From an uncultured Anaerolineales bacterium (lineage in GTDB: Bacteria > Planctomycetota > Phycisphaerae > FEN-1346), in contig CAYGZE010000001.1 in NCBI GenBank assembly GCA_964354185.1, forward strand, positions 1,939-65,938: a DNA stretch of 64,000 nucleotides, read 5' to 3'. A program made the position numbers and the translations under genes. The notes below the pieces were generated by a model that was not told the origin of the DNA, searched no databases, and saw only the letters and a program-made list of their open reading frames with translations. Positions 11,003-35,807 of the stretch are shown here, in pieces (positions within the stretch are counted from its first letter, which is position 1; each line of letters begins with the position of its first letter).

Positions 11003-11287
11003 CTAGATGCCGTCCCGGAGAAGCCTTTCCGCGGCCCTGACGGCGGCCTCGGGGGTGTCCAGCGAGCCGGAGGCGAGGAGACGCTTGGCCTCCGCGACGG
11101 CGTCGGGCCGGACCTCGGGGGCCTCGGCCGCACGGCGGGCATAGGGCTCGATGTCAGGTCCTTGCGGGCCCGGCGCTTGGGTGGGCCTGCCGGTCGCGTT
11201 TGCGGGCTGATCCGGACGGACCAGGTTCCTGGCGCCTCCGGGGACATGCAGGGGGTCAACGCCGTGGGTTCCCTCGATCTGCATCAT
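11003..11287 (-). CDS. flgM: anti-sigma-28 factor FlgM
   Basis: 94 aa; a disordered N-terminus and the C-terminal VRPDAVAEAKRLLASGSLDTPEAAVRAAERLL match the FlgM sigma-28-binding helices. It has its own sigma-28 promoter and is adjacent to fliC. Confidence 0.6.
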   Translation of the reverse strand: MMQIEGTHGVDPLHVPGGARNLVRPDQPANATGRPTQAPGPQGPDIEPYARRAAEAPEVRPDAVAEAKRLLASGSLDTPEAAVRAAERLLRDGI

Positions 11288-11319
11288 GTCGCTCCGCTGC
11301 TAAGGTTCTCCCCTAAGTA

Positions 11320-11346
11320 TTGTCAGCATCCGCGCGCGGAACTTTA
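11320..11346 (-). promoter_or_regulatory. putative sigma-28 (FliA) promoter of flgM
   Basis: Minus-strand TAAAGTTC-N11-GCTGACAA ~35 nt upstream of the flgM start. This is a near-consensus class-III flagellar promoter. Confidence 0.5.
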
Positions 11347-11406
11347 GGAAAAATCCGGGCGGCGGGCGGTTTTTCCGCTGCCGCGTCTCACGGGTTCCGG
11401 CGCGGC

Positions 11407-12054
11407 TCAACGGGCGGCCCCCCCGTCGGGCAGGGTCGCGGCCGCCTCCTGGGCGACGAACTTCTGAAAAGCCCTCGAACTGACCAGGGCGATCCGCCAT
11501 TGGAGCGGGCTGTCGCCGCTCTCGACCGAGCGGCGGTAGTAGTCCTCAATGCGCTGCTGGGTCCGGCGGTCGCTGGTGTCCCACGTGTGGTCGACGGCCC
11601 ACAGGAGCCGGCCGTCCCTGAGGTCCACGAGCCGCAGGTACAGCCCCCCCTGCAAGTGCGGGTAGGGCCGAAAGGCCGTGACGGTGCCGACGAGGGCGGC
11701 GTCGCAGCGGAAGGCCTTGCGCATGTCGGCCAGTTCCCGAAGGGTGATCGCCTGGCCCGAGGGGCGGCACCAGGGACCGCCGGTGTCGGTGGTGGCCGGG
11801 ACGAGGCTGACCTGGAAGAGGCGTCGCCCCTGGAGGGCCTGGAGGAGTTCCGTCGTCAGGCCCTCCTCGACGCCCGGGAAGTCGGTGGCGTTGGCGAGGG
11901 GGACGAAGGCGACGCGGTTGAGCCGCAGGACCCCCCCGGCCGGGTCGAGGTAGTGCCCGACGCGCAGGCGTGCCTGGTTGGACCAGCAGCCGGCCGTGAG
12001 GACGGCCGCCAAGCACGCGGCCAGGATCAGGATGGGGCTACGGCGTGGAGTCAC
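11407..12054 (-). CDS. lipoprotein, possibly a FlgP/LPP20-like flagellar outer-membrane lipoprotein
   Basis: 215 aa; signal peptide with lipobox LTAG|C (MTPRRSPILILAACLAAVLTAGCWS). Globular ~190-aa domain. It overlaps the upstream lipoprotein gene by 17 nt and sits between fliA and flgM. The FlgP assignment rests on size, lipidation and context only. Confidence 0.6.
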   Translation of the reverse strand: MTPRRSPILILAACLAAVLTAGCWSNQARLRVGHYLDPAGGVLRLNRVAFVPLANATDFPGVEEGLTTELLQALQGRRLFQVSLVPATTDTGGPWCRPSGQAITLRELADMRKAFRCDAALVGTVTAFRPYPHLQGGLYLRLVDLRDGRLLWAVDHTWDTSDRRTQQRIEDYYRRSVESGDSPLQWRIALVSSRAFQKFVAQEAAATLPDGGAAR

Positions 12055-12688
12055 TGGCGGATTCCTTCTTGTCCGGTTGAGGGGCCGTGGCGGCTCTCCT
12101 CGGGGGTGTGGTCGGCTCGACGCTGGTCGTGGGCGCGGCGGCCTTCTTCAGCGCGGCGGGCTCGGCGGCGGCGACGGGCGCGGCAGCGGGCGTGACCGAG
12201 GCGGCCTCGGGCTGGGGCGTCTCGCCGCCCAGGAGCCGCAGGACCTTGCCGAGCGCCTCCAGTTCAGCCAGGTGGGCCCGGCGCATCTCGTCGCGGTATC
12301 CGAGGACGTCGGCTTTCCACCGGTTGTTCTCCTGGCGGACCTCGATCAGGAGGGCATTGGCCGCCTCCAGTTCACTGGTGGCCTTGGCGAGGTCGGCCTT
12401 GGCGGCGTCGAGTTGCTGCTGGAAGGAGCGGTTCTCATCGAGGAGTTTGCGGCCCCGCTGCTGCTCCTGGGACAGGTCCTCGACCGTGCGGGCGTACTTC
12501 TCGGACCACAAGAGGGCGCTCTCGACGGCGGGGGCCTTGTCGGGCGGGGTGTCCTGGGCGACGGCGCCCTTCGAGAGGTACTCGGTGCCGGCACCCGGCC
12601 CTTCCACGAGGACACTGGGTTTCCAGGCGGTCTGGCAACCTGCGGAGACCATCGCCAGGGCCAGGATCAACGAGACGGCGCGGCGCAT
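12038..12688 (-). CDS. coiled-coil lipoprotein (hypothetical; flagellar-associated by context)
   Basis: 216 aa; lipobox MVSAG|C. Central coiled coil (QQQLDAAKADLAKATSELEAANALLIEVRQENNRWK). C-terminal Pro/Ala/Thr-rich linker. Translationally coupled to the downstream lipoprotein gene. Confidence 0.6.
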   Translation of the reverse strand: MRRAVSLILALAMVSAGCQTAWKPSVLVEGPGAGTEYLSKGAVAQDTPPDKAPAVESALLWSEKYARTVEDLSQEQQRGRKLLDENRSFQQQLDAAKADLAKATSELEAANALLIEVRQENNRWKADVLGYRDEMRRAHLAELEALGKVLRLLGGETPQPEAASVTPAAAPVAAAEPAALKKAAAPTTSVEPTTPPRRAATAPQPDKKESASDSTP

Positions 12689-12713
12689 GACTGGACCTCC
12701 TTCTTGACCTGAT

Positions 12714-13010
12714 TCATGGGTTTGCTTTCCGAGCGGGCGGCTCCGGGCCGCCCGAGCCTGACTGCTGGCCGTCAGGCTGGCCGATCGGGGCCGGATCCTG
12801 CCACCGGCACTCGATGTGGGTCACGTTGCCGCAGGGGCACCGCACTTCGAGGACCACGCAGTCGGCGTGCCGCTCGACGACGCGGACCGCGGTCTCGCCC
12901 CCGGCCGCAGGGGCCGAGGCGCGGTGCATCCCTGGGGCCGCGCCGATGCGGCGGGGCGCGGCCGACTTGACGCGGCTCTTCTTCAGGATGCGTGTCAGTG
13001 CGGCACTCAT
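12714..13010 (-). CDS. small Cys-cluster protein (possible zinc-ribbon), hypothetical
   Basis: 98 aa with DCVVLEVRCPCGNVTHIEC (C-x7-C-x-C-x6-C). It lies in the same orientation between fliA and the lipoprotein genes. No recognisable family, so coding status is uncertain. Confidence 0.35.
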   Translation of the reverse strand: MSAALTRILKKSRVKSAAPRRIGAAPGMHRASAPAAGGETAVRVVERHADCVVLEVRCPCGNVTHIECRWQDPAPIGQPDGQQSGSGGPEPPARKANP

Positions 13011-13295
13011 TCGCCTGGTTCCTCCCGTCGGTCCCCGGCAAGGCTCACGCCAGGGCGTCGAGCGCGTGTCCCTCCCCCTCGGGGGCCCCCGCGGGCGGCG
13101 GGGGGCTCTCGCCGCGCGCCTCCCCCGGACCGGCCGGCGGTGACGTCGCGGTGGCAGGCCGCGCGGCGGGGCGTCGCGGCCTGGCGTCTCGCGGGCGCCG
13201 GTGCGGCGTTCGCCTGTCGCGCTGGGGGACCCGGCCGAGGCCGGCCACCTCGCGCGGGCCGTCGGGTCCGACCACGGAGTCGTTTTCGGGGGTGC

Positions 13296-14078
13296 TCATG
13301 GGGCGCTCCTCAATCGCAGGGACAACTTCATCAGGGCGCTGGCGTGCACCTGGCTGACGCGGGATTCGGTGATCTCGAGAACCTCGGCGACCTCCTTCAT
13401 GGTCAGGTCGTGGTCATAGTAGAGGAGGAGGAGTTTGCGTTCGCGTTCCGGGAGTTCGCGGATCGCCCGGGTCATCCGGTCGACCATCTCGCGGCGCTGG
13501 ACCTCGGTCTCGGGGGTGGGCGTGGTGTCGGCCGGGACGAGGGGCCCGAGCGTGGGCCCGTCCTCGCTCAGGCCGTGGATCGACAGGAAGTGCTGGCAGC
13601 GGGCCTCTTCGAGCGTCCGGTAGTACTTGTCCAGGGGGACGCCGGCCTCGTCGGCTAGTTGCTCGTCGGTGGGGACGCGGCCGTGGGCGGCCAGGAGGCG
13701 CCCGTAGGCGCGGCGGATCTTGCGGACCAGGCGGTAGACGTTCGCCGACACCCACGACCGGTTCCGCAACTCGTCGATCACGGCCCCGCGGATGCGGATG
13801 TAGGCGTAGGTCTTGAACTCCGCATGTTTCGATTCGTCGTAGGCGCGGGCGGCCTTGACGAGCCCGACCGTGCCGGCCGAGATGAGGTCGTCCTCGTCCC
13901 GGGCCCGCCCGAGCGTGGCGACGACCTTCTGCACGACGTGCCGCACCAGAGGGAGGTGCGCCACGATCCACTGGTCCTCGGCGGTGCGGCGGGACTGCTG
14001 GGCGTAGGCGCGGCTGGCCTTCGCCTGGAGGGCTTTCTGCGGCGGCTTGTCGACGGCGTTTTGCGTGTCCGTTCTCAA
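13296..14078 (-). CDS. fliA: flagellar sigma factor FliA (sigma-28)
   Basis: 260 aa; sigma-70 region 2 (DLISAGTVGLVKAARAYDESKHAEFKTYAYIRIRGAVIDELR), region 3 and region 4 (LTMKEVAEVLEITESRVSQVHASALMKL). It lies downstream of flhA, and two sigma-28-type promoters occur in the window. Confidence 0.88.
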   Translation of the reverse strand: MRTDTQNAVDKPPQKALQAKASRAYAQQSRRTAEDQWIVAHLPLVRHVVQKVVATLGRARDEDDLISAGTVGLVKAARAYDESKHAEFKTYAYIRIRGAVIDELRNRSWVSANVYRLVRKIRRAYGRLLAAHGRVPTDEQLADEAGVPLDKYYRTLEEARCQHFLSIHGLSEDGPTLGPLVPADTTPTPETEVQRREMVDRMTRAIRELPERERKLLLLYYDHDLTMKEVAEVLEITESRVSQVHASALMKLSLRLRSAP

Positions 14079-14299
14079 CGCCCTGGTCCTTCATGCCCCC
14101 CCTTGGGACCGCCACGATGCAGCACGTCTGCCGTCACGGAGACCAGCACTCCTGCCGCCACCCGCGCCACGAAGTAGAGGACCGCGGCGCCGACGAGGGC
14201 CCGGAGGCTGCACGCGGCCGGCGGCACGCCGCTCGCGGTGCCGACGATCGCCAGCACCAGGAGGCCGACGACCGCGACCCGGATGGCGGCACGGTTCAT
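14075..14299 (-). CDS. small 2-TM membrane protein (hypothetical) between flhA and fliA
   Basis: 74 aa (MNRAAIRVAVVGLLVLAIVGTASG...AVLYFVARVAAGVLVSV). Its stop overlaps the fliA start (ATGA). It occupies the position where flhF/flhG usually sit. Coding status is uncertain. Confidence 0.35.
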   Translation of the reverse strand: MNRAAIRVAVVGLLVLAIVGTASGVPPAACSLRALVGAAVLYFVARVAAGVLVSVTADVLHRGGPKGGHEGPGR

Positions 14300-14330
14300 G
14301 GCTACCTCTCACCCCTTCCGTCCGAATCCG

Positions 14331-16490: not shown

Positions 16491-17581
16491 GGGGCGCCGC
16501 GCCTCCCGGCAGCGGGCACGCGCTGCCTGCGGAGCCGGTAGATCATGGCCAGGACCTCGGCGACGGCCACGTAGAGCGGCTCGGGCACGATGTCGCCGGC
16601 GTCACACGTCTGGTAGATCGCACGGGCGAGTTCCGGCCGATGGACGATCGGGACGTCGTGAGACCGGGCGATCTCCTTGATCTTCTCGCACAAGAGGTCG
16701 GCCCCCTTGGCGACGACCTGGGGGGCGTTCATCGCCGTTGCGTCGTACTTCAGGGCCACCGCCACGTGGGTCGGGTTCGTGACGACGACGTCGGCGGTCG
16801 GGACGGCCTGGAGCATGCGCCGGCGGACCATCTCGAACTGGACGGCGCGGATGCGGCTGCGAACCTCCGGCGAAACCTCGTGCTGCCGCCGCTCCTCTTT
16901 GATCTCCTGGCGGTTCATGCGCATGTCGCGCCGGTGCTGCCACCACTGGTACAGGGCGTCCAGGACCGCGATGGCCAGCAGGGCGACGGCGATCCGGGCC
17001 GTCACGCCGAAGACGCCGTCCAGCGTGGCCTTCAGGCCCTCCAGCGGCGACGACCACACCAGCGCCAGGCACAGGCCGAGTTTGTCGCGGAAGTACGCAA
17101 CCACGATCGCGCCGATGACCGCCACCTTGACGGCCGAGGCGGCCAGGTGGACCACCGACCGCCCCGAGACCAGGTGCTTCAGGCCGTTGGCCGGGTTCAG
17201 CCGGTCCATGTTGATCCGCAGCGCCTTGGGCGCGACCGACCAGCCGCTCACGACCACGCTGCCGAGGACGGCCGACGCGCTCATCGCGATCATGAACGGC
17301 GCAAGGGCCACGAGCGCCTCGATCCCCTTGTCCTGGAGCAGGCGGATGGCCGACTCCGCGTCGAACGACCCGGCGCGGTCGAACGTGCACCCCTCGGCCA
17401 CCAGCCGCGAGAACCAGCGCCATAGGGCCGGTCCCGCCAGGGACGTGGCCACGAGCAGCGTCCCCAGGGCGAGGGCGGCCGACATCTCCTGGCTCTGGGG
17501 GACCTTCCCTTCCTCCCGGGCCTTGCGCAGCCGCTCCGGGGTCGGGGGTTCGGTCCTCTCACTTGCCGGTCGGTCTGCCAT
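16487..17581 (-). CDS. flhB: flagellar export apparatus protein FlhB
   Basis: 364 aa; the autocleavage site NPTH is present (VVVTNPTHVAVALKY), with four TM helices. Its stop overlaps the flhA start by 4 nt. Confidence 0.92.
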   Translation of the reverse strand: MADRPASERTEPPTPERLRKAREEGKVPQSQEMSAALALGTLLVATSLAGPALWRWFSRLVAEGCTFDRAGSFDAESAIRLLQDKGIEALVALAPFMIAMSASAVLGSVVVSGWSVAPKALRINMDRLNPANGLKHLVSGRSVVHLAASAVKVAVIGAIVVAYFRDKLGLCLALVWSSPLEGLKATLDGVFGVTARIAVALLAIAVLDALYQWWQHRRDMRMNRQEIKEERRQHEVSPEVRSRIRAVQFEMVRRRMLQAVPTADVVVTNPTHVAVALKYDATAMNAPQVVAKGADLLCEKIKEIARSHDVPIVHRPELARAIYQTCDAGDIVPEPLYVAVAEVLAMIYRLRRQRVPAAGRRGAP

Positions 17582-18352: not shown

Positions 18353-18355
18353 CGG

Positions 18356-20606: not shown

Positions 20607-21572
20607 TCAGACCTTCGCGCGCGGGTGTCGCCTCGTGTCTTCGACCTGGACGGCGTACCGGCCTTTGCAGAGGACCGGGCTGCCGCGCAGCACCGTCTGC
20701 CCCTGGACCGCGACCTCGACGGCCTCCGTGGCCTGCGTGTCGAGGACGAGCACGTCGCCGGTTTCGAGGGCGACGAGGTCGCGGACAGGGACCTCGGCGC
20801 AGCCGAGGCAGGCCGTGACGGTCACGCTGGCCTGTTCCAGGTGGTGGAGGATGGCCTCGCGCGTCTCGGCCGGGGTCGGCGCCCGCGTCGCGCCTTCGCC
20901 GGGGCGGGCGATGGGGTCCAGAAGTTCGCTTCGCAGGACGAAGGTGATCTCGCCGGCATCCTGATCGCCAAGCGGCCGCAGGGCCAGCGCCCAGAGGTTC
21001 TGGTCGGGCGGGCCGGGCATCGGCTCGTCGGGCGGCAGGATCTGTTCGGCGTGCTGGATCGCGGGTCCGCCGGCGCTGGCGCTTGCGGCCGAGAGGGCGC
21101 GGGTCATGGCGGCGGCCAGGTCCAGCAGGAGCGCGTTCTCGAGGGGCGAGAGGTCGCGGCGCTCGGCGCCGGCCGCTCCTTCGCCGCCGAGGAGTTGCCC
21201 GACCCATCGCAGGGCCGGCCCGGCGGCGAGGCGCAACACGCCGGCGGGGTTTCCGGCGGCGTCGTGGAGCGGAACGCGGTAGCCCTTTGCATCGTCCGCC
21301 CGCGCAGCAGCGGGATAGCACTCCGCGGGCGGGGAGGCTGCCAGGGGGACCTCCGTCCGCGTGAGGGACGACACTGCCTTGGCGATGTCCCGGGCCGCAC
21401 GCCGCGTGAACTCCTCCAGCCGCGCCCGCTGGCCGGGTGTGAAGCGGTGGGGCCGCGCCCAGTCGTACTCGGCGGCCGCGACGTCGGGCCGGCGGGCGGG
21501 GCTGCGGCTGCGGGCCACCGCCCGCAGGCGCTCCAGGATCTGAAGGTCTCGCGCTCGTTCGTGGGCGTTCAT
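20607..21572 (-). CDS. fliM: flagellar motor switch protein FliM
   Basis: Likely start MNAHERARDLQILERL, which overlaps the fliL stop (ATGA). Middle CheC-like domain and a C-terminal SpoA-like domain (VTVTACLGCAEVPVRDLVALETGDVLVLD). The longer track ORF start lies inside fliL. Confidence 0.85.
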   Translation of the reverse strand: MNAHERARDLQILERLRAVARSRSPARRPDVAAAEYDWARPHRFTPGQRARLEEFTRRAARDIAKAVSSLTRTEVPLAASPPAECYPAAARADDAKGYRVPLHDAAGNPAGVLRLAAGPALRWVGQLLGGEGAAGAERRDLSPLENALLLDLAAAMTRALSAASASAGGPAIQHAEQILPPDEPMPGPPDQNLWALALRPLGDQDAGEITFVLRSELLDPIARPGEGATRAPTPAETREAILHHLEQASVTVTACLGCAEVPVRDLVALETGDVLVLDTQATEAVEVAVQGQTVLRGSPVLCKGRYAVQVEDTRRHPRAKV

Positions 21573-22120
21573 GCCACCGTCAGTTTCTTGAACAGGACGT
21601 TCCGGATTTGGGGCTTCGCATCGGGCCACAGCCGCGTGTTGAGGCCGTCGAGAATCTCGCGCTGGAGCCGGTTCAGGTTGGCCGCGCCCCGCAGGTCGTC
21701 CAGGGAGCAACTGGCGAAGTAGACGGTCAGCCAGTTCATCAGGGTCGGCTTGCGGGCGTCGATCAGGGCCTTGACTGCCTCGAAGTCGTTCGAGGCGACC
21801 TCAAGGGTGACGACGACGCAGATGTATCGGGCGAGGCGCGGCTCGTCGAGGTTGACGGTGATGGCGTCGAAGTCGATGTACTGGTACGGCTCCGGGGCGG
21901 GGGGCTTCGGTCCCGCGTCGGCGGCCTCCGGCTGGGGCGCGGGGGCCGGGGCGCCGCCGTATCCGGCGAGCACGGCCGCGCCGTACCCCGCGCCGGCGGC
22001 GATGACCATCACGCCGGCGCAGAGGACGATGAACAGCCGTCCCTTGCCGCCGGGGGATGGGAGTCCCTTGCCGTCGAGGACGGGTTCTTGGTTCTTCGCG
22101 TCCTGCGCTGCTTTTGCCAT
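21569..22120 (-). CDS. fliL: flagellar basal-body-associated protein FliL
   Basis: Start MAKAAQDAKN with RBS AAGGAG. Single TM (RLFIVLCAGVMVIAAGAG), a Pro/Ala linker, then the conserved FliL core (YIDFDAITVNLDEPRLARYICVVVTLEVASNDFEAVKALIDARKPTLMNWLTVYFA). Confidence 0.75.
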   Translation of the reverse strand: MAKAAQDAKNQEPVLDGKGLPSPGGKGRLFIVLCAGVMVIAAGAGYGAAVLAGYGGAPAPAPQPEAADAGPKPPAPEPYQYIDFDAITVNLDEPRLARYICVVVTLEVASNDFEAVKALIDARKPTLMNWLTVYFASCSLDDLRGAANLNRLQREILDGLNTRLWPDAKPQIRNVLFKKLTVA

Positions 22121-22128
22121 GGCTTGGT

Positions 22129-22890
22129 TTACTCCTTTGTCGTGGCTTCCGTCACCGCAATGAGGACATAGACCCGCCCGGGCCCCTTGCCGGCCGCCAG
22201 GTGCCACCGTCCGCCCGACCCGGCGCCCGAGAAGTCGACCCGGGCGCCTCGGTGCCGCGCGTTCGCGTCGATGGCCGCGGCAAGGAACGTGCCGGCGGCC
22301 TTGGCGCGCTCGGCCGACAGGAGCCACTGTCCCGTGGGATCGGGCTCGTCGGGCGCCAGGCCGATGACCTGGAGGACGGTCGTGTGCCCGCCGGCCGGTG
22401 GCTTGAGGCAGGTCACCAGGTCGAGCAGGAACTCCTTCGCCTGGGCGTCGAGCGTCGCGTCGGATGGCTGGAACGCGATCGGCGTGGTGAGGAGGCGCGG
22501 CGGGGGGCCGTCGTCATTCGTCGCTTTCGTCTCGGCCAGGTGGCGCAGGTCGTCGAACACCTTGCGGATCTTCTCGTCCTCGGTGTCGATGACGCGCTCC
22601 TGGTCGAGGTTCTCAGGGTCCTCCTCCATCGGATACTTGGTGCGGATGTTTCCGAAATCGACCCTCTCGTCCTGGCCTGCGAGCAAGTCGGGAATCCCCA
22701 GGTAGTCGATGGCGCGGCGGAAGCCGCCCCGCAGCGTAAGAAACTTGGAGGACGCGTCCGGGTGGGTGGCCATGGCCTGGAGCATGATGAAGAAGGATAG
22801 GAGCAGGGTGGTCATGTCGGTGAACGACACGATCCAGGACGGGAGTCCACCCCCACTTTCACCGCTGGGTCTCCTCCGCAGAACGTTCAC
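22129..22890 (-). CDS. second MotB-like stator protein (MotB paralogue; OmpA-like C-terminal domain)
   Basis: GTG start overlapping the stop of the first motB (GTGA). N-terminal MotB plug/TM (PSWIVSFTDMTTLLLSFFIMLQ) plus a C-terminal OmpA-like peptidoglycan-binding region. It is distinct from, and only distantly similar to, the upstream motB. Confidence 0.65.
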   Translation of the reverse strand: MNVLRRRPSGESGGGLPSWIVSFTDMTTLLLSFFIMLQAMATHPDASSKFLTLRGGFRRAIDYLGIPDLLAGQDERVDFGNIRTKYPMEEDPENLDQERVIDTEDEKIRKVFDDLRHLAETKATNDDGPPPRLLTTPIAFQPSDATLDAQAKEFLLDLVTCLKPPAGGHTTVLQVIGLAPDEPDPTGQWLLSAERAKAAGTFLAAAIDANARHRGARVDFSGAGSGGRWHLAAGKGPGRVYVLIAVTEATTKE

Positions 22891-23567
22891 GGGCACACCT
22901 TTGGGTTCAGGATCGCCAGGGTGACGACCGGCTCGACTTCGGCGCGGGAGCCGCTTTCCCCGACGGCCGTGGAGATACTGAACCGGCCGGACTCGATCCG
23001 CTCGGCCTCGGTCAGGTGCCGGACGATGGCCAGGGCCCTCTGGAGCGCGCGGTCCTCGGCATCCGCGGTCGACGGCCCGGCGGCCACGGTCTCGCAGACC
23101 ACGACCTGGCTGGGGACCAGGCGCAGGTAGGCCGCCGCCTCGGCGAGGAGGGTTTTGCCCTGGGGCGTGACCTGGGCGCCCTGGCCCCAGAAGAGCACGT
23201 CGCTCGGGATGGTGAGGACGCGGCGGTCGCAGTAGGCGTCGGCGCTGCGCACGGGCTCGGGTTTCCGGGGTCGGTAGGTGGGGTCGAGCCGGTCGAAGGT
23301 CGGGACCTCCTGGCCCTCCTCGGTCCGGTCCACCACGGTCGGGGCCCGATCCACGGGCGACTCGAGGGCGAATCGGCGCCTGGCCATGACGGACGGGTCG
23401 GACGGCCCGTCGAACATGCCGACCAGGCGCCCCCCGGCCTCGGTGTCGAACGAGGAGAACGCCAGGAGCAGGACGAAGAATGTCAAGAGCAGGGTCATGC
23501 AGTCGCTGAACGTGACCATCCACTCGTTGCACGAGGACTCCGGCGGGGGCGGTCTTCGGGCTGGCAT
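22887..23567 (-). CDS. motB: flagellar stator protein MotB
   Basis: 226 aa; NEWMVTFSDCMTLLLTFFVLLLAF is the canonical MotB N-terminus and TM, followed by a C-terminal OmpA-like domain. It lies immediately downstream of motA (1-nt gap). Confidence 0.82.
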   Translation of the reverse strand: MPARRPPPPESSCNEWMVTFSDCMTLLLTFFVLLLAFSSFDTEAGGRLVGMFDGPSDPSVMARRRFALESPVDRAPTVVDRTEEGQEVPTFDRLDPTYRPRKPEPVRSADAYCDRRVLTIPSDVLFWGQGAQVTPQGKTLLAEAAAYLRLVPSQVVVCETVAAGPSTADAEDRALQRALAIVRHLTEAERIESGRFSISTAVGESGSRAEVEPVVTLAILNPKVCP

Positions 23568-23568: not shown

Positions 23569-24339
23569 TCAGACCTCCGGTTTCAGTTCTGTGCGGTGCC
23601 GGGAGGACACGAACGCCTGCATCCGCTCTCGGACGGCCGTGGGTCCCTCGCCGCGCACCACGGCCAGGAGGCCCTCGATGAGCATCTCCTTCTGGAGCGA
23701 CTCGCCCTTGGAGCGCAGGCCGAGTTTCCCCGCCAGGGGAATGAAGACGAGGTTGGACAGGAGGGCGCCGTAGAAGGTGGTGATCAGGGCGGTGGCCATG
23801 CCGACGCCGATGCCGCTGGGGTCCGAGAGGTTCCGCAGCATCTGCACGAGGCCGATGAGCGTTCCGATCATGCCGAAGGCGGGCGCGCTGCCGCCCATGA
23901 ACTCCAGGATCTTCTTGCCGTCCTGGTGGCGCTCCTGGAGGTACTGGACCTCCAGGCCGAGTTGCTTCCCGATGGCGTCCTCATTCTGGCCGTCGATGAG
24001 CATCTGCATGCCCTTAATGAGGAACGGGTCGCGCAGGCCCCGGACCTGCTCCTCGAGGGCGAGGGGCCCGTCGCGGCGGCTGATGGCGGCGTAGTTGACC
24101 ATCTGCTGGACCAGCGCCTGCTCGCTCGGCAGTTGGTCGAACACGGCCTTCTTGACGACGGAGAAGATCCGGAGGACCTGTCCCATGGAGAAGTGAATCA
24201 TGGTGGCGGAGAGCATCCCGCCGACCGTAATCAGGACGGAGGGGATGTCGAAGAAGACGCCCATGCCCCCGCCGCCGTACATGGAGACGAGGATGCACGT
24301 GGACCCCGCGATCAGCCCCACGATCGTCGCAATATCCAT
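23569..24339 (-). CDS. motA: flagellar stator protein MotA/PomA
   Basis: 256 aa; four TM helices and the conserved MotA/TolQ/ExbB core (GGSAPAFGMIGTLIGLVQML...GVGMATALITTFYGALLSNLVFIPLAGKL). Confidence 0.9.
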   Translation of the reverse strand: MDIATIVGLIAGSTCILVSMYGGGGMGVFFDIPSVLITVGGMLSATMIHFSMGQVLRIFSVVKKAVFDQLPSEQALVQQMVNYAAISRRDGPLALEEQVRGLRDPFLIKGMQMLIDGQNEDAIGKQLGLEVQYLQERHQDGKKILEFMGGSAPAFGMIGTLIGLVQMLRNLSDPSGIGVGMATALITTFYGALLSNLVFIPLAGKLGLRSKGESLQKEMLIEGLLAVVRGEGPTAVRERMQAFVSSRHRTELKPEV

Positions 24340-24342: not shown

Positions 24343-24996
24343 TCAGCCCTCGATGCGGACCCGTTTCATCATGTCGCTCAAGCGGGCGGCCTGCTCCTTG
24401 TCGCTCATCTCGGCCAGGACCTTGGCCACCGCGCGTTCCGTCATGTAATGGAGGATCTTGACCGCATCGATTTCCTGGCTGTTCTTGCACATGCTCTCGA
24501 AGATGCGGCTGGCGGCGTCGGCGGCCATTTTGTCGTAAATGGCGGCCGTGCGTTTGAGGTTGACTTCCTCGTCGCGGCGGAGGGCGACGCGGCTGCGATC
24601 GAGGGTGTCGCGCGCCTGCTTCAACTGGCTGACCTGGGTGGCCAACTCGACGCGGAGGTTCTCCAGTTCCGCGGTCTGTTTTTCGAGGTCCTGGCGCGCG
24701 ATGCCGAGCCGCCGCTGCTCTTCCTGAAGTTCCTTCTCGCGTCCCTCGCACTCGCGGAGTTTGCCCCGGACCTCGCGGATCAGGGCCTGGAGTGCCTGCT
24801 GCTCCGTCAGCGCGGACGGGTTGAGCAGCGTGGAGAGTTCCTCGGGCTGGGGGCCCTTGGCCGCCGCCTGAGGGGCCGGCTCGCCGGCCGCCTCGGTCGG
24901 TTTCGCCCCGAGCCAGTGGCTTGCCAGATAGGTGCCCGCGAAGGCGGCCCCGGCCAGGACGACCAGAACCAGGATCTTCAGCATCTTGCCGTGCAT
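24343..24996 (-). CDS. flagellar-operon protein with an MgtE-N-like domain (FlbB/MotE-like), membrane-anchored
   Basis: 217 aa; N-terminal TM (MLKILVLVVLAGAAFAGTYLA), a coiled coil, and a C-terminal AAIYDKMAADAASRIFESM...EIDAVKILHYMTERAVAKVLAEMSDKEQAARL that resembles the MgtE-N/FliG-C-like helical motif of flagellar FlbB/MotE proteins. Confidence 0.45.
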   Translation of the reverse strand: MHGKMLKILVLVVLAGAAFAGTYLASHWLGAKPTEAAGEPAPQAAAKGPQPEELSTLLNPSALTEQQALQALIREVRGKLRECEGREKELQEEQRRLGIARQDLEKQTAELENLRVELATQVSQLKQARDTLDRSRVALRRDEEVNLKRTAAIYDKMAADAASRIFESMCKNSQEIDAVKILHYMTERAVAKVLAEMSDKEQAARLSDMMKRVRIEG

Positions 24997-29999: not shown

Positions 30000-30031
30000 G
30001 CCTCACCGGTCGCGCGTGACGCCGGCGACCG

Positions 30032-30343
30032 CTACACTTGCATGTTCATCGTCTGCTTGTAGGCCTCGATCACCTTGTTGCGGACGGCGACGAGGAGCCT
30101 GAAACTCATGTCGGCTCGGGCGACGGCCTGGACGACCGGCAGGACGTCCTGGCTGGCGCCGCTGAGGAGTTGCCGCACCGAGGCGGCCGACTCCTGCTGG
30201 TCCAGGTTCACGGCGTCGACGGCCTTCTCGAGCATGCCGCCGAAATCAGTAGGCGTGCCTTTCTGCGGCGCGTCGGTCGCCGGCCGGGTCATGGAGGGAA
30301 AGAGCGGCTGGGTGGCGATCGCGCCGGGTCCCTGGACGTTCAT
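30032..30343 (-). CDS. fliE: flagellar hook-basal body protein FliE
   Basis: 103 aa ending LLVAVRNKVIEAYKQTMNMQV, the conserved FliE C-terminus. Confidence 0.85.
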   Translation of the reverse strand: MNVQGPGAIATQPLFPSMTRPATDAPQKGTPTDFGGMLEKAVDAVNLDQQESAASVRQLLSGASQDVLPVVQAVARADMSFRLLVAVRNKVIEAYKQTMNMQV

Positions 30344-30358
30344 AAGATCTCCTTGCGG

Positions 30359-30769
30359 CTAGCGGAGCAATTCGATCGTGGCTTCCACCATGTCCTGGTA
30401 CCGTTTCAGGACGGCGACGTTGGCCTGATAGGCCCGCGAGGCGAAGACGAGGTTCATCATCTCGACGGGCAGTTGCACGTTGGGCATCTGGACGTAGCCG
30501 TTCGCGTCGGCATCGGGGTGGCCCGGCATGAGGACGGAGCGCAGGGCGCTTGAGTCCTGCGCGACGCGGACGATCCTGACGCCTCCGAGGTCCTGGGGGG
30601 TCGTTCGCAGGACGACGTCCTGGCGGCGGTAGGCTTGGCCCGTCTGCGTTCGCGTCGTCTCGGCGTTCGCGATGTTGGCCGAGATCAGGTTCAGCCGCAG
30701 CGACTGGGCCCGGAGGCCCGAGACGGCGATGTCCACCATCGGGGAGATGTTGTCGACGCCCATCGTCAT
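30359..30769 (-). CDS. flgC: flagellar basal-body rod protein FlgC
   Basis: 136 aa; N-terminal SANIANAETTRT... and the C-terminal rod motif VQMPNVQLPVEMMNLVFASRAYQANVAVLKRYQDM. Confidence 0.9.
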   Translation of the reverse strand: MTMGVDNISPMVDIAVSGLRAQSLRLNLISANIANAETTRTQTGQAYRRQDVVLRTTPQDLGGVRIVRVAQDSSALRSVLMPGHPDADANGYVQMPNVQLPVEMMNLVFASRAYQANVAVLKRYQDMVEATIELLR

Positions 30770-30787
30770 GCTCCTCGGCGGTCCCGA

Positions 30788-31144
30788 TCAGGCCTGGATC
30801 GCCAGTTCCATCTGCCGGTACGTGCGGTTCAGGACCCGCATGTACGTCTTGTAGAGGACGGAGTTCCTGACGAGGTCGGCCACTTCGCGATCGAGTTCGA
30901 CGTCGTTGCCGTGCTCGTTGAGCGGGTCGGTGGCGGGCCGGAGGATGCGGGCGGCCACCTCCCGGGGGTCGATGGGCTTGCCGGCATCCATGGCGTCGGC
31001 GAAGACCTCCTCGAACGGGAGGATGGTGCGGCGGTAACCGGGCGTCGCCATGTTGGCGATGTTGTTGGCGACGGCGGCCTGGCGCAGGGTCGTCGCGCGG
31101 AGGCCGGCCTCCAGGTATTCGATTATGCCGGTGCCTTGAGCCAT
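30788..31144 (-). CDS. flgB: flagellar basal-body rod protein FlgB
   Basis: 118 aa; LRQAAVANNIANMATPGYRR and the C-terminal NSVLYKTYMRVLNRTYRQMELAIQ. Its start lies inside the 3' end of the upstream regulator gene (22-nt overlap). Confidence 0.85.
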   Translation of the reverse strand: MAQGTGIIEYLEAGLRATTLRQAAVANNIANMATPGYRRTILPFEEVFADAMDAGKPIDPREVAARILRPATDPLNEHGNDVELDREVADLVRNSVLYKTYMRVLNRTYRQMELAIQA

Positions 31145-32568
31145 AGTCGGTCTCCCGTGGCGTCCGCGTCGCCCGCTTGGCGATAGCGGCGCAGTTTCTC
31201 GCGCAGGGTCCGGTCCGTGATGCCGAGGAGTTTCGCGGCGCGGGCCTGGTGGCTGCCGGTGACGCGCAGGGCCTTGAGGATCGTGTGGCGCTCGACGTCC
31301 CTCAGGCGGAGGCTTGGGCCGGCGTCCGTGCCCCCCGACCTCTCGGCCGGTCCGACCTCGGCACGGCCCGTGGCGGTGACGGGCAGGCAGGCTTCCAGTT
31401 CCGCCCGAAGCCACGGGGCCCCGGCCAGCGAGAGCACGTCGCTCGACCCGAGGACCAAGGCGGTGCGCACGGCGCTGCGCAGTTGCCGCACGTTGCCCGG
31501 CCAGTCGTACCGCTGGAAGAGGTCCATCATGTCGGGGTCGAGCGCCGTGATCGAGCGCCGCACCTCCCTCGCATATTCGTTGACGAAGTACCACGTGAGC
31601 AGGGGGATGTCCTCCGGGCGCTGGCGCAGGGGAGGCACCGCCACGAGCATCCCCGCCAGCCGGTAGTACAGGTCGCCCCGGAAGCGTCCCCGGCGGACAA
31701 GGCCGGGAAGGTCGCGGTTCGTCGTACTGATGACCCGGACGTTGACGCGGAGGCTCTTCGACCCGCCGACCCGCTCGAAGTCCTGCTGGTCCAGGACGCG
31801 GAGCAACTCGGCCTGGAGCCGCAGGCCCGTCTCCGTCACCTCGTCCAGCAGGAGGGTCCCCCCGTCGGCCAGTTCGAAGCGGCCCTTGCGCTCGATGACC
31901 GCGCCCGTGAACGCGCCGCGTTCGTGGCCAAAGAGTTCGCTCTCCAGGAGCGAGTCGCTCAGGGCGGCGCAGTTGACGCGGACGTAGGGCCCGCCTGCGC
32001 GGCGGCTGCCCTGGTGGATGAGGTTGGCGACCAGTTCCTTGCCGGTCCCGCTCTCGCCCAGGATGACGATGGGCAGCGACGTCTGGGCGGCCTTCCGGGC
32101 GAGAGTGAGGGCCTGGAGGAGGGCGGGGCTTCGGCCGACGATGCGGCAGGGGTGGCGGCCGTCGGGGACGACGGCGGCTGCCAGCGGCACCGTCCGGTTC
32201 GGCAGGAGCGCGTCGAGCAGTTCCTCCACGGTCCGGCGCTTCAGGGGCTGGGTAAGGAAGTCCTCGCACCCCGCGCGGAGGGCCCGGACGACCGTTGGGA
32301 CGGCCGCCTCGCCGGAGATCATAACGACGGGCAGTTCGGGCTCGCGGCGTTTGACCTCCTCGACGACGGCCAGGCCGCCCCCGCCGGCCGTCTCGAGTTC
32401 GACGAAGACGAGGTCCCACCGCTCCTGCGGGATGTGGTCGCCGGCCGCCTTGACGTCGCGGGCGACGGTGCCGCGAATCCCGCGGGCCGCGAGCACCTCC
32501 AGCAGGAGGCGCGTCGTCGGCGTGTTGCAGCCGACGAGGAGCACGTTCGGATGGACCGAATCCGTCAT
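31123..32568 (-). CDS. sigma-54-dependent response regulator (NtrC/FlrC/FlbD-type bacterial enhancer-binding protein)
   Basis: 481 aa; RBS AAGGAAAGG. Receiver-like N-domain (DLVFVELET, VVMISGE). AAA+ sigma-54 activator core (ILGESGTGKELVANLIH, GAFTG, ESELFGHERGAFTG, GGTLLLDEV, RVISTTNRDL, DLYYRLAGMLVAVPPLRQRPEDIP). C-terminal Fis-type HTH (QARAAKLLGITDRTLREKLRRY). Confidence 0.9.
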   Translation of the reverse strand: MTDSVHPNVLLVGCNTPTTRLLLEVLAARGIRGTVARDVKAAGDHIPQERWDLVFVELETAGGGGLAVVEEVKRREPELPVVMISGEAAVPTVVRALRAGCEDFLTQPLKRRTVEELLDALLPNRTVPLAAAVVPDGRHPCRIVGRSPALLQALTLARKAAQTSLPIVILGESGTGKELVANLIHQGSRRAGGPYVRVNCAALSDSLLESELFGHERGAFTGAVIERKGRFELADGGTLLLDEVTETGLRLQAELLRVLDQQDFERVGGSKSLRVNVRVISTTNRDLPGLVRRGRFRGDLYYRLAGMLVAVPPLRQRPEDIPLLTWYFVNEYAREVRRSITALDPDMMDLFQRYDWPGNVRQLRSAVRTALVLGSSDVLSLAGAPWLRAELEACLPVTATGRAEVGPAERSGGTDAGPSLRLRDVERHTILKALRVTGSHQARAAKLLGITDRTLREKLRRYRQAGDADATGDRLWLKAPA

Positions 32569-33338
32569 GGCGCCTTTCCTTGGGTGGCCGGCGGCGTTGT
32601 CGTCAGGATGTTCGGCTTCCCCCTGGGCGTGGCCGGCGTCGCCGGCGGTGTGGTCGGCGCCGGCGGCGCAGTCGTCGGCGACGGCTCCTCGGTCTCGGTC
32701 GGCCGGGCCGCGAGCCGCCCCTCCGCCAGCGCGCGGTACGTCTTGGCGATCTGGGCCCAGGGCGAGTCGGGGTGGTCCTTCAGGATCTGGTCGTAGATCG
32801 CGATGCCGGCGGCGGGGTCGCTCTCGCGCTGGCAGTTGGCCATCTGGAACAGGGCCCAGGCCTTGGCCTTCCCGTTCCCGTCCGCCTTGAGGGCTGTCTC
32901 GTAGAAGGCGTAGGCCTCGCGGTAGTGGCCGGCCTGGAACAGGGCGTCGGCCAGCGCGAGCGGGTCGGCGATGCGGTCGGGGGGCAGCCGCCGGAGCCGC
33001 TCGAGGTCTTCGGGCGTCACGATGGGAACGTCGGACCTGGGTCGGGGCGGCGCGACGTCGACGGGGGTTGTCGGCGACGCGGCCGCGCCCGTCGAATCCG
33101 GCGCCGCGCTGTCGCGCGGGCTGGGCTTGGGCCGTGCCTGGAGGGAGTGGATGTGCTGGATGGTCGCCTCGAGTTCGCTGGCGGCCGATTCGCCTATCGG
33201 GGGGGTCACGAAGGACCGCAGGAGTTCGAGGCGGTTTTGCCGGGCCCGGGTCACCACGTCGTCGGCAGGGGCAGCCGCCGCGAGCGACGCCGCGGCAAGG
33301 CTTGCCAGCCCCAGGGCCAGTCGAGGCAGGTGTCTCAT
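32565..33338 (-). CDS. secreted TPR-repeat protein (flagellar operon member)
   Basis: 257 aa; signal peptide MRHLPRLALGLASLAAASLAAAAPADD. TPR-like motifs (ALFQAGHYREAYAFYETALKADGNGKAKAWALFQMANCQRESDPAAGIAIYDQILKDHPDSPWAQ). Pro/Thr-rich tail. ATGA overlaps on both sides. Confidence 0.7.
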   Translation of the reverse strand: MRHLPRLALGLASLAAASLAAAAPADDVVTRARQNRLELLRSFVTPPIGESAASELEATIQHIHSLQARPKPSPRDSAAPDSTGAAASPTTPVDVAPPRPRSDVPIVTPEDLERLRRLPPDRIADPLALADALFQAGHYREAYAFYETALKADGNGKAKAWALFQMANCQRESDPAAGIAIYDQILKDHPDSPWAQIAKTYRALAEGRLAARPTETEEPSPTTAPPAPTTPPATPATPRGKPNILTTTPPATQGKAP

Positions 33339-35656
33339 GGGGTCGCCGCTCCTTCCGCCGGGGGCAGCACGCCCGACAGGGCCAGGGACGCTCGGTCGTA
33401 GTCGCGCATCCGCAGGTAGGCCGTCCCCAGCACCTCGAACACGCGCCGCCGCAGGTCATCCGAGAGCGGCAGCGTCAGCAGGTGCCGGCACACGCTGGCC
33501 GCGTGAGACGCCTGCCCGGCCTTGAGGCAGACGTCGGCCAGTTCGCAGGCGGCCTCGCCGGCGAGGGGCCCGGTCCCGGCTTCCGTGAAGACGGCCGACA
33601 GCCGCCGCCGGGCCTCCTCGAGTTCGCCCAGGTCGACGTGGCACCGGGCCAGTTCGAGGACCATGCGGGTTCGGCCCTCGGGGGAGGCGGCCGATCCGAG
33701 TTCGGCCTTCAGGAGGCTCTTGGCCTTCTCGGCCAGCCCGATGGTCCGCAGGATCTCGGCGCGCAGAAGAATGGCCTCGTCGGCCTTCTCGGGGGACGTG
33801 GTGCTGCGGTCGAGGCCCTCGACGACGGTGACGGCGGCCGCCAACTCGTCCTGCTTCACCAGCGTGCGCGCCAGTTCCAGGAGGATGTCGGTCCGGAAGG
33901 CCGGCCCCGGCTTGAACCCCAGGCCGGTCCGCAGGGCGGTCCGGGCCTCGTCGAGCCGGCCCCGGGCGCCTTCGCTCCGGCCAAGCAGCAGGGCGGCCTG
34001 GGCCGGCTCGTCGCCGGTCTGGTCGGCAGCGAGGCTGAGGTAGCGGTTCAGCCACTCGGCGGCCCCGGCGTAGTCTCCCTTGCGGTAGAGGCACGTGCCC
34101 GCGCCGAGGCAGGCGCCGAGGCGGCTCGGCCCCGACAGTTCGAGACCGTACAGTTTCTTGAACGTTGCGACGGCCTCGTCATAGAGGCCGGCCTCCATGG
34201 TGGCCTTCCCCAGCCTGAGGTAGACCTCGTCGGTCGCGGAGAAGTCGGGATGGCGGTTGAGGAGTTCGAGCAGTTCGTCGCGGGCGCCGGCGTAGTCGGT
34301 CAGGTCGATCCGGGTCGCGGCGCTGCGCAGCCTGGCCAGGGGCGCCAGTGGCGAATGGGGAAACCGTTCGGCCAGGAGGTCAAACTCGGTCATCGCGCCG
34401 GGTTTGTCGTTGCGGCACTCGCACAAGAGGCCCAGCGCGAAGTGGCCGTAGGCGAACTGCCCGGCCTCGGACGTCAGCAGGAAGAGCCGGCGCCAGGCCG
34501 ATCCCGCCTCGCGGACCAGGATGTCCTGGAGGTCGGACGTTGAGGCGCACGTCGCCGGATCGTGGATCACGGCCCGCGTTCCGCTCAGCCGGGCCAGGAG
34601 CCCCACCGCGCCGCAGGCGACCTCGATGACCCGCTGGTCGGTGAGGTTCTCGCCGTAGAGGAACAGGGGGCGGGCCCGCGCCGCCGCATCCGGGCCCTGC
34701 CACGCGATCTCGATCCCGGCCGCACCGGCCAATCGGTTCAAGAGTTCCTCGACCGGGGCGCCGGCCGACGTGACCGTCCACCGCGGGCCCGTCCTGGCGT
34801 TGGCAACCACGGCGAGTTTGGGGGCGAGGATCGCCCCTGCCAGTTCGTGCGTCCCGGCGGCGAGGAGCCCGCGGAGTTCCTCTTCGTTGCGGAGGTTGCT
34901 GAACGGGTCCAGATCGATGCCCGCAGTGGCCGGCAGGTCCCGTTCCCGGTTGAACAAGGTCAGGGCCTTGCGCGAGAGCGACTCCGCCACCAGCACGTCA
35001 CACGCCGACTGGATGCTCCCGGTGCCTGGAACCAGGGTGAGCACAGCCAGCGCCTTGTAGGCCTGCATCCGGGCCGTCAGGTACCGTCCCTCGCGCAGGT
35101 CCAGAAGGGCCGTCTGGAAAGACACCATCCCGCGGATGACGGGGGAGCGGCTCTTCGCGAGCGACGCCAGTTCCGTCCGGGCCTCGGCGCTGTGTCCCGA
35201 TCGCAGTTGGGCCTGGGCCAGGCGCAGCACCAGGAAGTCCACCACGAGGTCCGCGTCCTCCTCGCCGGCCTCGGACCGCGTGGTCGCCAACAGTTGCCGG
35301 TAGCAGTCGAGGGCCGCGGCGCTGTCCCCCTCGGCGCGGGCCTTCTCGGCCACCGACAAGGAGACGCCGGTCGGCGGCTTCGGGCCGGGCTGGTCCGGGA
35401 TCTGGTCGATTGCCGCCTTCGCGGGCGCCGCTGGCGGGGAAGGGGGCGGCGCCGTCTCATCGGCCTCCGGCCAGAAGACGGCCGCGACGGAGACGGCCAC
35501 GACCAGCGCGCCCGCCGCGAGCAGCATGACCCGGCGCGCCGTGTGGGACTTGGCGTCCGCCAGCAGGGCCGTGGCCAGCCCGTCGTTCACCATCGCGGAC
35601 GGGTCCGGTGCCGGAGGCGTCCCGTCACTGGCGGCCGATGTGGGCTCGTCTGCCAT
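33335..35656 (-). CDS. membrane-anchored multi-TPR protein (773 aa), first gene of the sigma-54-driven flagellar superoperon
   Basis: One N-terminal TM (RRVMLLAAGALVVAVSVAAVFW) followed by ~700 aa of TPR-like helical repeats (ALDCYRQLL..., EAVATFKKLYGL..., YAGAAEWLNRYLSLA..., LGELEEARRRLSAVF...). Its stop overlaps the next start (ATGA). Confidence 0.75.
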   Translation of the reverse strand: MADEPTSAASDGTPPAPDPSAMVNDGLATALLADAKSHTARRVMLLAAGALVVAVSVAAVFWPEADETAPPPSPPAAPAKAAIDQIPDQPGPKPPTGVSLSVAEKARAEGDSAAALDCYRQLLATTRSEAGEEDADLVVDFLVLRLAQAQLRSGHSAEARTELASLAKSRSPVIRGMVSFQTALLDLREGRYLTARMQAYKALAVLTLVPGTGSIQSACDVLVAESLSRKALTLFNRERDLPATAGIDLDPFSNLRNEEELRGLLAAGTHELAGAILAPKLAVVANARTGPRWTVTSAGAPVEELLNRLAGAAGIEIAWQGPDAAARARPLFLYGENLTDQRVIEVACGAVGLLARLSGTRAVIHDPATCASTSDLQDILVREAGSAWRRLFLLTSEAGQFAYGHFALGLLCECRNDKPGAMTEFDLLAERFPHSPLAPLARLRSAATRIDLTDYAGARDELLELLNRHPDFSATDEVYLRLGKATMEAGLYDEAVATFKKLYGLELSGPSRLGACLGAGTCLYRKGDYAGAAEWLNRYLSLAADQTGDEPAQAALLLGRSEGARGRLDEARTALRTGLGFKPGPAFRTDILLELARTLVKQDELAAAVTVVEGLDRSTTSPEKADEAILLRAEILRTIGLAEKAKSLLKAELGSAASPEGRTRMVLELARCHVDLGELEEARRRLSAVFTEAGTGPLAGEAACELADVCLKAGQASHAASVCRHLLTLPLSDDLRRRVFEVLGTAYLRMRDYDRASLALSGVLPPAEGAATP

Positions 35657-35791
35657 GGGTCCTGTCCGCGTTCTGGGGCCCGGCCGAAGGGTCTCCTCGG
35701 CCGGCGCATACCCTCGCGCAGGGGGCCGTCTGGCCCGGAACGGGCGTCCCCCCGGCGCCCGTTCCGCGCACCCCTGTGCGCAGGGACCGTC

Positions 35792-35807
35792 TGCAAGGGG
35801 CGTGCCA
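35792..35807 (-). promoter_or_regulatory. sigma-54 (RpoN) promoter of the flagellar superoperon
   Basis: Minus-strand reads TGGCAC-gcccc-TTGCA, an exact match to the -24/-12 consensus, ~135 nt upstream of the 33335-35656 gene start. An adjacent inverted repeat GCGCAC-ccct-GTGCGC lies at 35766-35781. Confidence 0.6.

Follow-up and report, generated by a model that had tools for sequence, protein, structure and literature searches.

Large periplasmic proteins built of tetratricopeptide repeats (TPR) are known from several flagellar motors, and they are among the described systems closest to the locus considered here, a flagellar gene cluster within 64 kb of DNA (the window, that is, the whole stretch analyzed; contig CAYGZE010000001.1 of assembly GCA_964354185.1, placed in Phycisphaerae, Planctomycetota). 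In Campylobacter jejuni and Helicobacter pylori, PflA and PflB (PDB 9HMF) are such proteins of ~770-820 amino acids (aa), encoded near flagellar genes, and they link the E-ring to MotB (PMC11870540). PflA has ~17 TPR repeats as well as a signal peptide, an AMIN-like beta-sandwich at its N-terminus and a flexible loop (PMC11870540), and PflB has an N-terminal transmembrane anchor and an antiparallel pair of strands (beta1 and the C-terminal beta2) which divides its TPR array. Likewise, MotC of Sinorhizobium, MotK of Cereibacter and FlcA/FlcB of Borrelia are periplasmic, TPR-rich partners of MotE/FlbB which contact MotB and are needed for stator function; their genes lie in mot or flagellar operons. 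An E-ring of FlgY/FlbB/MotE accompanied by a TPR partner is a pattern already generalized to most flagellated phyla (Feng et al., PMC11870540; Zhu et al., PMC13023049). Among 1,365 flagellated species, 66% possess a FlgY homologue; TPR proteins encoded close to flagellar genes are known from 52% of flagellated species; and the partners PflA, FlcB, MotC, MotK and CC_2058 are all TPR proteins relating to MotB (PMC11870540, PMC13023049).

The window encodes a membrane-anchored TPR protein (TPR773), a smaller secreted one (TPR257), a candidate E-ring protein of the FlgY/FlbB type, two lipoproteins (lipoA and lipoB), and a MotA with two MotB proteins (MotB1 and MotB2), whose coordinates are given in Table 1. 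We lean, at slightly better than even confidence, towards reading these accessory genes as encoding lineage-specific periplasmic parts of a 'complex' Phycisphaerae flagellar motor, and we infer the structural roles of all the accessory proteins from context and fold. The genes are packed in one sigma-54-promoted unit together with rod, MS-ring, export-gate, C-ring and stator genes. In order of transcription, this minus-strand unit runs TPR773, TPR257, the gene of a sigma-54 enhancer-binding protein (EBP2), flgB, flgC, fliE, fliF, fliG, fliH, fliI, fliJ, the FlgY-like gene, motA, motB1, motB2, fliL, fliM, fliN, fliO, fliP, fliQ, fliR, flhB, flhA, a gene for a 75-aa membrane protein, fliA, two small open reading frames (ORFs), lipoA, lipoB and a probable flgM. 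Starts and stops overlap at TPR773/TPR257 (by 4 nt), TPR257/EBP2, EBP2/flgB, motB1/motB2 and lipoA/lipoB. The accessory genes keep their position across many divergent Planctomycetota genomes, where the TPR, lipoprotein and MotB pairs are each syntenic with flagellar genes, as a preliminary description of this DNA would have required.

That description had also proposed a sigma-54-driven flagellar unit opening with two TPR genes, and this is borne out by the promoter upstream of TPR773. Exact TGGCAC-N5-TTGC sites occur just twice in the 64 kb, each upstream of a flagellar operon. Looser matches (35 found against ~51 expected from shuffled sequence) show no excess, so that it is the exact sites, together with where they lie, which carry the promoter argument. 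Three distant loci (L001-L003; such labels denote related loci) have an equivalent element, placed 86-119 nt upstream of their TPR gene.

In the high-confidence model of TPR773, a transmembrane helix (residues 36-61) is joined by a disordered linker (62-96) to helical repeats (100-234); an alpha/beta domain (280-365) comes next, then a TPR solenoid with about ten repeats (373-761) and a disordered end (766-773). The single N-terminal transmembrane segment that had been described thus stands, in that the hydrophobic stretch RRVMLLAAGALVVAVSVAAVFW is modelled as helix 36-61 and gives the protein an N-terminal anchor as in PflB; the ~700 aa of TPR attributed to it give way to the three-part architecture above. 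Seventeen full-length homologues were found, down to 34% identity, and those that are named belong to Phycisphaerae. The three most distant (33-40% identity in tblastn) all lie in the order activator, TPR gene, gene for a protein of ~240-260 aa, activator, flgB. The alpha/beta domain has six strands and is highly conserved, with invariant W293, E303, W319, R327 and R329. A profile search of PDB sequences returned nothing for it, and its Pfam matches are weak (TcpQ, 0.017; DotD, 0.049); calling it N0/STN-like would be a guess. TPR773 is a candidate stator or E-ring scaffold.

TPR257 is secreted, as had been stated, and its TPR content is limited to ~2-3 units (aa 120-200) with a conserved C-terminal unit of ~90 aa, the rest being signal peptide and Pro-rich linker. 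Among the 29 loci with a flank long enough, 25 show it upstream of the activator (tblastn). A 317-aa TPR protein encoded downstream of motAB in locus L086 was considered as its homologue; there is no significant similarity, and homology is not claimed.

A likeness to PflA and PflB had been suggested for both TPR proteins. Their template modelling scores (TM-scores) against the C. jejuni PflA/PflB chains are 0.21-0.28, no better than those against eukaryotic TPR proteins, so structure comparison cannot place them, and Pfam and NCBIfam profile scans detect no sequence similarity. TPR773 resembles PflA and PflB in being a large periplasmic TPR protein encoded with flagellar genes, a type that in the known cases bridges E-ring and MotB. 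TPR257 has a signal peptide as PflA does, but just 2-3 TPR units, and a small secreted partner of this kind sets the pair apart from the PflA/PflB system. The resemblance to MotC, MotK and FlcA/FlcB lies in TPR-rich, periplasmic proteins encoded in mot or flagellar operons. However, MotC and MotK are soluble and encoded beside motB, whereas TPR773 is membrane-anchored and its gene, the first of a sigma-54 operon, stands 11 genes upstream of that for the FlgY-like protein.

TPR proteins of ~780-844 aa near flagellar genes have been tabulated for species of the Planctomycetes-Verrucomicrobia-Chlamydiae group (Supplementary Table 5 of PMC11870540), among them Algisphaera agarilytica of the Phycisphaerae (FlgY 242 aa, TPR 827 aa), Phycisphaera mikurensis and Pirellula staleyi. 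The TPR part of the locus is therefore an instance of the published generalization, differing in domain architecture, and no new category is opened, since stator scaffolds in the periplasm and TPR proteins linked to flagella already form an established theme. The extra periplasmic scaffold of the preliminary description is plausible, but its claim of an independently evolved novelty was overstated in view of the published pattern (PMC11870540, PMC13023049), and its label 'high-torque' was pure inference. The families tabulated in Supplementary Table 5 do not include lipoA, lipoB or the MotB pair (PMC11870540).

The conserved order EBP1 / TPR773-TPR257-EBP2-flgB suggests another role for the TPR proteins. 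Kinases of the FleS/FlrB type occupy the slot between the two activators in Gammaproteobacteria. EBP2 lies between the TPR genes and flgB, overlapping both TPR257 and flgB, and its receiver domain is degenerate: the DD acidic pair is missing, and Glu replaces the phospho-acceptor Asp (VFVELE). Pfam scans of the window proteins found no histidine kinase anywhere in the window, and EBP2 is probably not controlled by phosphorylation. TPR773 and TPR257 could accordingly form a regulatory checkpoint of the sigma-54 cascade, sensing periplasmic assembly and controlling the kinase-less EBP2. This we regard as improbable, because the cytoplasmic N-terminus of TPR773 (~35 aa) is predicted to be disordered (pLDDT, short for predicted local distance difference test, 32-44), is poorly conserved and offers no evident signalling module, more than 90% of the mass of TPR773 is periplasmic, and TPR257 is secreted. 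EBP1 occupies the same position upstream of the operon in L001-L003.

The candidate E-ring component is encoded between fliJ and motA, a position that its gene keeps in about 50-57 other loci (tblastn). From its sequence, the protein has an N-terminal transmembrane segment, a long coiled coil and a C-terminal MgtE_N-like domain. Genes of the FlgY/FlbB/MotE group adjoin fliJ and/or fliK, and two-thirds of their products carry an N-terminal transmembrane segment (PMC13023049, PMC11870540). The transmembrane segment, long helix and fliJ adjacency of the FlgY/FlbB/MotE/YlxF family (PF03448, MgtE_N; PMC13023049) are all shared by the window protein, while the C-terminal MgtE_N domain of that family has only a sub-threshold counterpart in it; five of the 11 members of the window protein's own family match MgtE_N, likewise below threshold. 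A search of PDB sequences with the family profile gave coiled-coil noise only. The source papers on the FlgY family also used sensitive searches and structure (PMC13023049, PMC11870540).

The two lipoproteins between fliA and flgM are confirmed as described earlier, with lipoboxes in both and an overlap of 17 nt, and two small ORFs precede them. lipoA was found directly upstream of lipoB in every case (L004-L006) and wherever the flank reaches. All 17 lipoA homologues retain both their lipobox and a motif, ...ANxLLxxxRxxxxxWKxxVLGYRDEM, and the lipobox of lipoB is likewise conserved in its homologues. The residue at position +2 after the lipobox Cys is Asp in 11 of the 17 lipoA homologues (L004-L058) and in none of ~30 lipoB homologues; under the Lol sorting rules of E. 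coli, this would send lipoA to the inner and lipoB to the outer membrane. The lipoB family is large, with 1,471 representative sequences at E<=1e-3 and 724 at E<=1e-10 in an exhaustive HMMER search. Homologues of 35-48% identity all lie in the order flhA, ~80 aa, fliA, ~88 aa, ~80 aa, lipoA, lipoB, ~93 aa, and flagellin, fliD and fliS follow in the two loci that extend far enough. A sigma-28-like promoter, TAAAGTT-N12-GCTGACAA, was read by eye on the minus strand between lipoB and the probable flgM (11288-11406), which places the lipoproteins in the early unit and not in the filament class.

Two distant loci extend this picture. L086 (1075-7325) has the order fliA, small Cys protein, coiled coil, lipoB, motA, motB, 196-aa lipoprotein, 317-aa secreted TPR protein, and as lipoB stands there directly upstream of motA-motB, the lipoprotein module is linked to the stator. 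The neighbours of L086 (PSCyt2, PSD1 and DUF1501, of Planctomycetia type) mark a different Planctomycetota lineage. In L088 the order is flhA, fliA, lipoprotein, coiled coil, lipoB, fliL, a 287-aa ORF and a gene for a FliN-type protein. Three further loci with distant lipoB relatives (L087, L089 and L090) are on contigs too short for gene context. lipoA matches the 227-aa coiled-coil protein of L086 with E 3e-5 within the coiled coil, which is suggestive only of homology.

Neither lipoprotein matches any Pfam or NCBIfam family, LPP20 (PF02169) included. lipoB, described earlier as FlgP/LPP20-like in size and lipidation, is not a member of that family, and the LPP20-type fold is not its closest structural relative either. 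Its fold is the one seen in outer-membrane lipoproteins that form rings, a domain of FlgT (Vibrio H-ring) among them, and lipoB belongs to a broad fold class holding several ring-forming lipoproteins. The best structural match is PelC (PDB 5T10, 5T0Z, 9H80), the dodecameric outer-membrane lipoprotein ring of the Pel exporter; lipoB has both the PelC fold and a lipoprotein signal, the two share 16-19% identity, and the lipoB family profile matches PelC among PDB sequences (E 5e-4). Unlike PelC, lipoB has extra C-terminal helices (aa 163-214), and whereas PelC sits in the pel operon, lipoB is never beside pel genes and always beside flagellar ones (window, L004-L006, L086, L088). Among flagellar structures, the closest known systems are the FlgT/FlgP/FlgO H-ring and basal disk of Vibrio and Campylobacter and the FapH ring of H. 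pylori.

The likeness to an export-channel accessory such as PelC is also what might be seen if the accessory proteins were transient assembly or envelope-remodelling factors, absent from the finished motor. They could act during passage of the rod and the L/P rings through peptidoglycan and outer membrane, as chaperones or as organizers like YbgF/CpoB, BamD or PelC. MotE was first proposed as a periplasmic chaperone for MotC. Such a role agrees with the grouping with early (class II-like) genes and with matches below threshold to BamD and to YbgF (TPR773, 61 bits; TPR257, 27 bits), and a transient periplasmic ring during C. jejuni assembly has been reported (PMC11870540). We nevertheless consider transient factors unlikely. 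No accessory protein reaches the threshold of a housekeeping family, the matches to BamD, YbgF, LptE and LpoB being far below curated cut-offs in an always flagellar context, so that a housekeeping identity, which would have undone the preliminary description, was rejected. Further, the direct linkage of the coiled coil and lipoB to motA-motB in L086 points to the stator over rod or ring export, and the analogous TPR and lipoprotein genes of other phyla proved structural (PMC11870540, PMC11756786).

The motA gene and two consecutive motB genes reported for the flagellar unit are confirmed by Pfam. The two MotB proteins score 49 and 38 bits with MotB_plug (cut-off 24), and the OmpA domain falls below its cut-off in both (22 bits against 27.2; MotB1 at 1.6e-4). 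In an alignment of 58 sequences, MotB2 retains the motif GLAPD...W.LSARRA.AV, while the peptidoglycan-binding helix of MotB1 keeps the Arg alone. The channel Asp is conserved in both families, Asp25 of MotB2 being invariant, and the MotB2 profile matches solved MotB chains at 4e-9. The GTG start of motB2 overlaps the stop of motB1 (GTGA). A scan with the MotB2 profile, using one genome per species, gave 79 loci, which were searched by tblastn with every protein of the window. The order fliJ, FlgY-like gene, motA, motB1, motB2, fliL, fliM recurs in 57 other Planctomycetota loci, and both motB genes are present in all 57 other loci covering both positions. A single motB occurs in loci of other phyla and in a Bythopirellula locus (L075). 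MotB1 and MotB2 are 45% identical over just 38 aa of the transmembrane and plug region, which together with the class-wide conservation of the pair led us to reject a recent tandem duplication; the wording of a 'duplicated' MotB is thus misleading, and by their sequences the two are ancient paralogues.

The closest known arrangement is that of Aquifex aeolicus, where one motA is followed by two motB genes with divergent periplasmic domains in one operon (PMC4525482). The transmembrane regions of the Aquifex MotB proteins are, however, 97% identical, i.e., a recent duplication (PMC4525482), and unlike them the ancient, class-wide pair of Phycisphaerae differs in the retention of the peptidoglycan-binding motif. 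For Aquifex, the use of alternative stators has been suggested (PMC4525482). The same could apply here, with MotA5-MotB1x2 and MotA5-MotB2x2 serving different load, ion or anchoring conditions, and the plug and channel Asp kept in both proteins agree with this; we give it a substantial chance, somewhat short of even. The much lower transmembrane identity, by which two such different B subunits could fill two non-equivalent positions in one MotA pentamer, the GTGA coupling, which favours equimolar synthesis, and the invariable presence of both genes count against it. The alternative is a heteromeric stator, in which one MotA pentamer would hold one MotB1 and one MotB2, with MotB2 on peptidoglycan, MotB1 on TPR773/TPR257 and the FlgY-type E-ring, and the lipoB/lipoA ring bracing the outer-membrane side. 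To our knowledge, no flagellar stator with two non-identical B subunits has been described. Such an assembly is rather doubtful, yet it stays open on account of the translational coupling, the invariable co-occurrence and the divergent transmembrane segments.

If the accessory proteins are lasting motor parts, as we favour, the transmembrane-anchored FlgY/FlbB-type protein would form an E-ring around the MS-ring. TPR773, with its one inner-membrane helix, and TPR257 would take the role of PflA/PflB, FlcA/FlcB, MotC and MotK, as spokes or a rim joining the E-ring to the periplasmic domains of the stators and holding the stator units in place. These units would consist of the one MotA and the two MotB paralogues, of which MotB2 keeps the peptidoglycan-binding motif, and MotB1, having lost it, probably docks on the protein scaffold. 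lipoB would oligomerize into an outer-membrane-proximal ring near the L/P rings, and the coiled coil of lipoA may be its partner or spacer.

Several points weigh against this picture of a motor scaffold. A literature search found no in situ or experimental structural data on any Planctomycetota motor. The TPR genes are flanked by two transcriptional activators, which is compatible with a regulatory role. TPR773 departs from the definition of PflA in that it is anchored by a transmembrane helix, lacks the beta-sandwich at the N-terminus and has an alpha/beta domain of ~85 aa in its middle, and the strand pair that divides the TPR array of PflB is absent in its model, which has no C-terminal strand. 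The MgtE_N match of the FlgY-like protein is sub-threshold (18.7 bits, cut-off 25.9). Finally, the nearest structural relative of lipoB, PelC, works in polysaccharide export and not in flagella.

Table 1. Features of the flagellar locus, with positions in the 64 kb window
Feature	Position	Strand	Evidence or remarks
TPR773, inner-membrane-anchored periplasmic TPR protein, 773 aa	33335..35656	-	Pfam TPR_16, TPR_19, TPR_21; AlphaFold model pLDDT 83
TPR257, secreted TPR protein, 257 aa	32565..33338	-	Signal peptide, Pro-rich linker, C-terminal TPR unit
FlgY/FlbB/MotE-type protein, candidate E-ring component	24343..24996	-	Between fliJ and motA; MgtE_N 0.0026, collar_FlbB (NCBIfam) 0.04
motA	23569..24339	-	Pfam MotA_ExbB 2.2e-26
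MotB1	22887..23567	-	MotB_plug 4.4e-13; plug and channel Asp kept, OmpA-like domain degenerate
MotB2	22129..22890	-	MotB_plug 1.1e-9; plug, channel Asp, near-canonical OmpA-like motif
lipoA, coiled-coil lipoprotein, 216 aa, Pro/Ala-rich tail	12038..12688	-	Lipobox VSAGC
lipoB, globular lipoprotein, 215 aa, PelC/FlgT-N/TolB-N-type fold	11407..12054	-	Lipobox LTAGC; overlaps lipoA by 17 nt
EBP1, sigma-54 enhancer-binding protein, FleQ/FlrA-like, weak receiver	36004..37596	-	Pfam Sigma54_activat 1.9e-63, AAA_lid_14, HTH_8
EBP2, sigma-54 enhancer-binding protein	31123..32568	-	Pfam Sigma54_activat 3.2e-64, Response_reg 2.6e-13
Sigma-54 promoter, -24/-12 element TGGCACGCCCCTTGC	35793..35807	-	Exact match, 137 nt upstream of TPR773
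Second sigma-54 site	37963-37977	+	Exact match, upstream of fliK
fliL	21569..22141	-	Pfam FliL 5.3e-13
Probable flgM	11003..11287	-	Position and C-terminal sequence; own sigma-28-like promoter in gap 11288-11406

The genes of the window (~71% G+C) were called by the frame bias of G+C at third codon positions (GC3). The named ORFs are present at their coordinates with GC3 of 0.85-0.94, which is coding-type, and their translations are identical, letter for letter, to the called proteins of the 66,386-nt NCBI contig. Pfam confirms flgB, flgC, fliE-fliJ, motA, the two MotB_plug proteins, fliL-fliR, flhB, flhA and fliA in the cluster. The flgM candidate has no Pfam match and is 54-67% identical to the gene just before flagellin in L004-L006. 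FliS has a Pfam match further downstream of flgM, and the ORFs between them are read as flagellin and fliD by position and similarity to L004-L006 only. The divergent plus-strand operon contains, by Pfam, fliK, flgD, flgE, one gene without assignment, flgG, flgI and a FlgJ-type rod-binding protein, followed by a gene weakly matching FlgN, then flgK and a protein of the flagellin family taken as flgL; flgF, flgA and flgH are assumed from gaps and the gene order of L001 and L003.

The preliminary description had passed over two genes, namely that of the FlgY/FlbB-type protein and a third TPR gene, located behind flgL at the end of the plus-strand flagellar operon (51436-52329, +). The product of the latter has strong canonical TPR_2 and TPR_1 repeats and no obvious signal peptide, and is possibly a cytoplasmic, chaperone-type TPR protein. 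The same operon, between flgE and the rod gene that follows, encodes a 375-aa protein whose N-terminus holds a membrane segment (41702-42829, +). It has no Pfam match; two PilZ-like regions (RRFAR...GALTEIAGPG) were recognized by eye, and it might be a membrane-anchored brake responsive to cyclic di-GMP. L001 and L003 have unannotated ORFs of 372-438 aa at this place, which is a positional match only.

The 75-aa membrane protein between flhA and fliA (14075-14302, -) has counterparts of ~75-83 aa at that position in relatives. The usual polar-placement genes at the flhA-fliA position in other polar flagellates are flhF and flhG, and neither is found in the cluster. Of the two small ORFs after fliA, the first (84 aa; 13045-13299, -) has a start that overlaps the fliA stop. 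It has no tblastn match in related loci, though an ORF of ~88 aa lies there at the same place, and it may be a real, fast-evolving gene. The second (12714-13010, -) carries the Cys motif VLEVRCPCGNVTHIEC and is kept at 31-46% identity in L004-L006 and many other loci, and its 78-aa counterpart in L086 carries DVTCACGERIRLRC. Eight loci (L008, L009, L011-L013, L015, L016 and L044) come from metagenome-assembled genomes titled 'uncultured Anaerolineales bacterium' and are collinear with the Phycisphaerae-type cluster, with MotB2 identities of 40-55%; the submitter taxon labels of these records look wrong.

The locus provides a concrete and testable parts list for a Planctomycetota motor. On it are a candidate for the E-ring; a TPR protein anchored in the membrane, which has an unusual central alpha/beta domain, and the small secreted protein that accompanies it; a lipoprotein family of the PelC/FlgT-N fold, linked to flagella and not named before, with a coiled-coil partner; and a class-wide, divergent MotB pair, one member of which lacks the peptidoglycan-binding motif. 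If the scaffold reading is true, the locus would be an independent data point for E-ring and TPR scaffolds as ancestral to bacterial motors, and a heteromeric stator could be revealed.

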